Origin: a virus
Lineage: Duplodnaviria; Heunggongvirae; Uroviricota; Caudoviricetes
DNA length: 7,391 nucleotides
Reading direction: 5' to 3' (one strand)
IMG/VR virus record: IMGVR_UViG_2695420724_000001
Location: 1-7,391 of that record
The notes below the pieces were generated by a model. It saw only the letters and a program-made list of their open reading frames with translations, had not been told where the DNA came from and made no database searches. Below, piece by piece: positions 1 to 100 of this stretch (positions within the stretch are counted from its first letter, which is position 1; every line of letters starts with the position of its first letter). The position numbers were made by a program, and so were the translations under genes.

Positions 1-100
1 TTCCACACTCTGGAGAGCACCACCACTGATTAGCGAATGCAGGGTGAAATCATTCCCGACATTCATCGTTTTTACATCGTCTTCGCGCTGGTTTAGCCAT
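1..100 (-). pseudogene. ninG: ninG (Rap-like recombination endonuclease) 5' end; in-frame TGA at codon 17 (bases 50-52); reading frame continues to window edge
   Basis: ATG at 100-98 overlaps the ninF 3' end. Translation is [36 protein letters not shown], which matches the recalled lambda NinG N-terminus except that the Trp codon (TGG) at position 17 reads TGA. Confidence 0.55.

Follow-up and report, generated by a model that had tools for sequence, protein, structure and literature searches.

The ninG start in a lambdoid early operon

The window, i.e., the whole stretch of 7,391 nucleotides analyzed here, is the early right-operon region of a lambdoid prophage and makes up an entire draft contig (LKPL01000021.1, 7391 bp, from assembly GCA_001440685.1). 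Its minus strand encodes a cro-like gene, cII, O (299 aa), P (233 aa), ren, two small ORFs, ninB, ninE, ninF and the start of ninG, and its plus strand a cI-like gene, a 173-aa ORF and N. Among the minus-strand genes, those of the nin operon are ninB/orf (439..849, 136 aa), an intact recombination mediator gene; ninE (260..442, 60 aa as called on the identical sequence of a second contig, L132, described below), an upstream neighbor of ninG; ninF (93..263, 56 aa); and the 5′ end of ninG/rap (1..100, codons 1-33 plus one base), which runs off the contig end. On L132, a 223-aa Metallophos gene and then Q follow, and the nin gene order across the window and L132 agrees with that of lambda and of E. 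coli SCU-308.

The TAA stop of ninF overlaps the ATG of ninG (ATGGCTAA), which is the usual nin-operon arrangement. Because of this overlap, and because the NinG profile (PF05766) aligns with the product from profile position 1, we take the ATG at 100..98 (minus strand) to be the native start of ninG. A native start further downstream, which the earlier note had allowed for, was rejected, since the profile aligns from residue 1, all homologues of the 203-codon type start from this ATG, and the sole restart codon would yield a product of 66 aa. We also set aside an antisense 53-aa ORF at 44-205 on the plus strand, which lies wholly inside the coding sequence of ninF and ninG and is without independent support.

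Translation of the minus strand from position 100 to position 1 of the window demonstrated an in-frame TGA at 52..50, i.e., at codon 17 of ninG, where an opal codon replaces a conserved Trp codon (TGG). The gene begins ATG GCT AAA CCA GCG CGA AGA CGA TGT AAA AAC GAT GAA TGT CGG GAA TGA TTT CAC CCT, so that the base following the stop is T (UGA-U). In an alignment of 110 bases around the ninG start, codon 17 is TGG in lambda (NC_001416), E. coli SCU-308 and CP012380, and TGA in the window and in L132; polymorphisms in lambda and CP012380 aside, this is the sole difference in these 110 columns. Translation and alignment therefore agree with the earlier note that a single TGG to TGA change has placed a stop at codon 17 (50-52). 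The note had given position 51 as the changed base; the alignment places the change at plus-strand position 50, which is T here and C in relatives, i.e., a G>A change on the coding strand.

Codon 17 corresponds to Trp18 of lambda Rap (NP_040639), because the annotated lambda start lies one codon further upstream (ATGATG in lambda, GACGATG here). Lambda’s first ATG (compared at window 98-110, minus strand, and L148 230-235) is replaced by GAC-G both here and in close relatives; the product is thus 203 aa rather than 204, with residue numbers shifted by one relative to lambda Rap. The naming of the gene as a Rap-like ninG held up, in that the product with the Trp restored matches PF05766 at 301.7 bits (cutoff 25.4; E = 3e-90), with residues 1-197 spanning positions 1-192 of the 193 in the profile, and is identical to lambda Rap at 196 of 203 residues (97%).

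A second assembly and the rarity of the allele

An exact look-up of a rare 118-aa ORF of the window in an assembly collection identified a 38.9-kb contig (ABJTLX010000043.1, GCA_026838195.1; locus L132) that is identical to the window at all 7177 of 7177 overlapping bases and carries the same ninG TGA in mid-contig. Since the window ends at a contig end, the earlier suggestion to see whether the rest of ninG is otherwise intact was followed on L132, where ninG occupies 7078-7689: it is, with the remaining 170 codons beyond the window intact and no stop in the frame after the TGA until the normal one at codon 204. That stop overlaps the ATG of a downstream ninI-type phosphatase gene (ATGA). The L132 frame contains two cysteine pairs (C9/C14 and C28/C32) and a CISCG...H...CVVCNQHK segment, and these fit the Rap domain layout predicted in PMC5714182, which has an N-terminal zinc finger and a C-terminal His-Me finger; a search for a solved structure of any NinG relative found none. 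Over 12 kb of L132, the neighboring genes all match their counterparts in other phages in length and show no other lesion. The uninterrupted frame of ~200 aa that characterizes NinG/Rap is broken at codon 17, and the locus as written is a ninG/rap nonsense allele (pseudogene) of a NinG family member, and not a functional member of the family.

The TGA lies 50 nt from the end of LKPL01000021.1, a short draft contig of 7391 bp that is broken inside a repeated prophage gene, and the allele is missing from every large collection searched, both of which are what would be expected if the true codon were TGG and the TGA had arisen from base calling or as a graph artefact near the contig end. Against this stands the identical allele in the middle of a contig that has another assembly accession and agrees with the window at each of 7177 bases. 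The repeat of the allele consists of two assembly accessions, which are not necessarily different isolates or read sets; error in two assembly consensuses would be improbable unless reads were shared, and the sequences thus point to a genuine allele. The contig-end artefact was rejected on the basis of the mid-contig copy, and the sequencing error that the earlier note had offered as one explanation is largely excluded; we regard an error of any such kind as highly improbable. As a separate observation, the end of LKPL01000021.1 falls 100 nt inside ninG, a break for which the recurrence of ninG-like sequence in lambdoid prophages is the probable cause; complete E. coli genomes that have any ninG-like place have a median of 2 and up to 8.

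We searched for the allele in several collections. A 71-mer centered on codon 17 matched 828 complete E. coli records at 865 places, and none of these 828 records was an exact match to the allele, the best having one mismatch. When viral contigs were scanned with a pattern accepting either TGA or TGG, at least 120 contigs matched, with TGG in all 120 of the matches listed and TGA in 0, and a TGA-only pattern scan of the viral contigs returned no match. The TGA allele was likewise not found in a set of one genome per species, using exact and degenerate patterns, or in a pattern scan of metagenome contigs. Among 128 full-length ninG copies in the loci we fetched, which were partly selected for the TGG 26-mer and not for intactness elsewhere in ninG, codon 17 is TGG in 119, CAC in 7 and TGA in 1 (L132). 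The 7 CAC copies have 201 codons and form a type whose N-terminus differs, and all 127 of the 127 other full-length copies are intact.

Comparison with 114 other copies of the 203-codon type showed that the A at ninG nucleotide 51 is the only base of this copy that is absent from all of them, with the other differences from its nearest relatives (a synonymous change at L67, R97C, S157N and others) being shared polymorphisms. Among complete E. coli genomes, the closest copy has 99.3% identity to this one, and its annotation gives an intact CDS that starts at the same ATG. A stop that is the sole private base of an otherwise intact gene bears out one option in the earlier note, that of a freshly inactivated recombination gene; an engineered allele, which the note had also listed, seems unlikely for a prophage in a draft genome.

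In a whole-window BLAST search of complete E. coli genomes and phage records, no record covered more than 71% of the window, and the phage is therefore a mosaic that is not represented in those sets. Judging from its nearest matches, the host would be E. coli or Shigella. The phage type is rare, corresponding to 3 of the 8 contigs that bear its 118-aa marker protein, and across the sequences searched the TGA allele appears private to this one type. The 26-mer across the TGA, seen in no large collection, is thus a convenient lineage marker.

Consequences of the stop and rival explanations

Taking these findings together, we consider it likely, at a probability of roughly 0.8, that a genuine, recent and probably neutral G>A transition left one prophage lineage with a ninG allele that is null or nearly so. 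By this account, the transition would have turned Trp codon 17 of ninG/rap into an opal stop in a lambdoid prophage, and translation from the native ATG would end after 16 residues. The stop would fall between the two cysteine pairs (C9, C14 / C28, C32) of the zinc finger predicted at the N-terminus, and well before the His-Me nuclease domain at the C-terminus, so that the phage would make essentially no Rap Holliday-junction/D-loop endonuclease, with UGA misreading perhaps leaking up to a few percent of the normal amount. In lambda, ninG is transcribed in lytic growth only and not in the lysogenic state, and it is dispensable for lytic growth. Neutral mutational decay in a resident prophage is therefore the simplest reading, neutrality itself being assumed.

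Reinitiation would not rescue the product. The first in-frame restart after the TGA is a GTG that gives the last 66 aa only, covering NinG profile positions 134-192, and by the Rap layout of PMC5714182 such a product would keep only half of the His-Me finger and would have neither the N-terminal zinc finger nor the HTH-like region. Selenocysteine insertion or other programmed recoding was rejected on two grounds. There is no SECIS-like hairpin 3′ of the UGA, the 75 nt from the UGA folding at -15.5 kcal/mol against a mean of -17.35 for shuffled sequences (z = +0.65), and the UGA is not conserved at codon 17 among homologues (119 TGG and 7 CAC against 1 TGA in full-length copies).

The only remaining route of bypass would be background misreading of the UGA by Trp-tRNA(Trp), which would regenerate the wild-type residue. 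If UGA-17 were read as Trp often enough, the allele could be a leaky one that supplies a reduced but useful dose of Rap. Of the stop codons of E. coli, UGA leaks most and is misread specifically by Trp-tRNA(Trp); a K-12 reporter gave readthrough of ~2% at 37 °C and 4% at 25 °C, with levels that vary with temperature, cAMP and growth state (PMC10570021); such decoding would restore the ancestral residue, and the downstream ninG frame is without further private change. An intact downstream frame is, however, equally expected from a very recent mutation, neither a downstream structure nor a conserved context is present to promote readthrough, and TGA stands at codon 17 in none of the homologues examined. 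RF2 is more active in natural isolates than in K-12, and U as the base after a stop, which is the context found here, is reportedly the most efficient for termination in E. coli. The real leak is therefore probably below the K-12 figures, and we judge a functional leaky allele very unlikely. The stronger version, in which the TGA is a retained attenuated allele and low-level decoding of UGA-17 gives authentic Rap at a few percent of the normal amount, seems to us extremely unlikely; if it were true, the nuclease dose of the phage would be tied to host physiology.

Loss of Rap might instead have been selected, for example if inactivation benefited the prophage or its host by curbing damage from the nuclease or exchange with the host’s other lambdoid prophages. 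Being so early, the stop would abolish function cleanly, the allele has lasted long enough to be represented in two or more assemblies, and E. coli genomes often hold several ninG prophages able to recombine (the median of 2 places, and up to 8, noted above). Against this, no parallel or independent ninG knockout occurs among the 127 other copies, with the allele confined to one rare phage type (3 of 8 contigs with the 118-aa marker protein). In addition, ninG is silent in lysogeny, which is established lambda biology, so that the host would see little of Rap, and a single G>A transition is the product expected of neutral drift. We therefore find selected loss quite unlikely, and retain the reading of a recent, probably neutral null mutation.

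Little polarity would be expected on ninI and Q, since transcription of the nin region is N-antiterminated and resists Rho, and since ninI on L132 retains a GAGG four bases upstream of its ATG. The earlier note’s expectation that loss of Rap alters recombination stands in direction, in that exchange with defective prophages falls 3-6-fold via Red and 300-500-fold via RecA in lambda rap deletions, whereas the effect on the phage is more modest than the note implied, plaque size being unchanged (PMC3945230). By inference from these deletions, the prophage, if inducible, would still grow and would recombine far less via the RecA pathway; much less RecA-pathway exchange with plasmids and other resident prophages is predicted, and the lineage would shuffle modules slightly less readily. 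Both the gene and the kind of lesion are already well known, and we regard the case as ordinary prophage gene decay, of little importance beyond annotation. For annotation, the locus is to be labeled a ninG/rap pseudogene (nonsense at codon 17), and neither left unannotated nor treated as an error.

Known systems and other features of the phage

The closest known system is lambda ninG/rap itself, which is the same gene in the same nin-operon slot, after ninE and ninF and with a start overlapping the ninF stop. The present copy differs in having TGA for TGG at codon 17 and in being without lambda’s extra upstream ATG codon, and a ninI-type phosphatase gene directly follows ninG with no ninH, as is also the case in L128, L129 and SCU-308. 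Point-mutation pseudogenes of decaying E. coli prophages likewise show one inactivating substitution in an accessory lytic-cycle gene of one lineage. In contrast to those, no other lesion is visible here over 12 kb on L132, and by its sequence the phage is otherwise apparently intact, its lesion resembling an initial hit and not the state of an advanced defective prophage. The lambda nin5 deletion and engineered rap deletions also lose Rap while keeping a plaque-forming phage, and their published phenotypes predict the effect of the allele (PMC3945230). Those deletions are laboratory-made or laboratory-selected, whereas the change here is a natural one-base nonsense change that retains all of the DNA. 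The nin5 deletion also removes neighboring nin genes and terminators.

Several other features of the phage were apparent from our analysis. The marker protein is a 118-aa ORF of the phiTE_015 family (821-1177, minus strand; phrog_343, unknown function) that just 8 contigs in the collection carry. This ORF and the start of ninB overlap by 29 nt, and relatives at that place are 90-116 aa long. The window also contains a mosaic joint (1761-4817), at which an immunity region (cI of 231 aa, cro of 71 aa) meets O (299 aa) and P (233 aa) genes of the lambda type. In ten large contigs that we examined, the same immunity region is followed by a DnaB-type helicase, usually beside a 273-aa O protein; an exact look-up of the O protein of the window identified it in 367 blocks of the assembly collection.

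The 173-aa ORF (5319-5840, plus strand) lies between cI and N, in the slot that is occupied by rexAB in lambda, and its expression in lysogens is probable. The ORF matches phrog_2602, a group of unknown function, has neither a recorded Pfam hit nor a PADLOC hit, and is listed in ~10,900 blocks of the assembly collection, i.e., it is a very widespread uncharacterized gene. Beyond the window, a 170-aa gene with HNH_3/AP2 domains is located between Q and the holin gene (L132 9059-9571), in the slot that holds stx in Stx phages.
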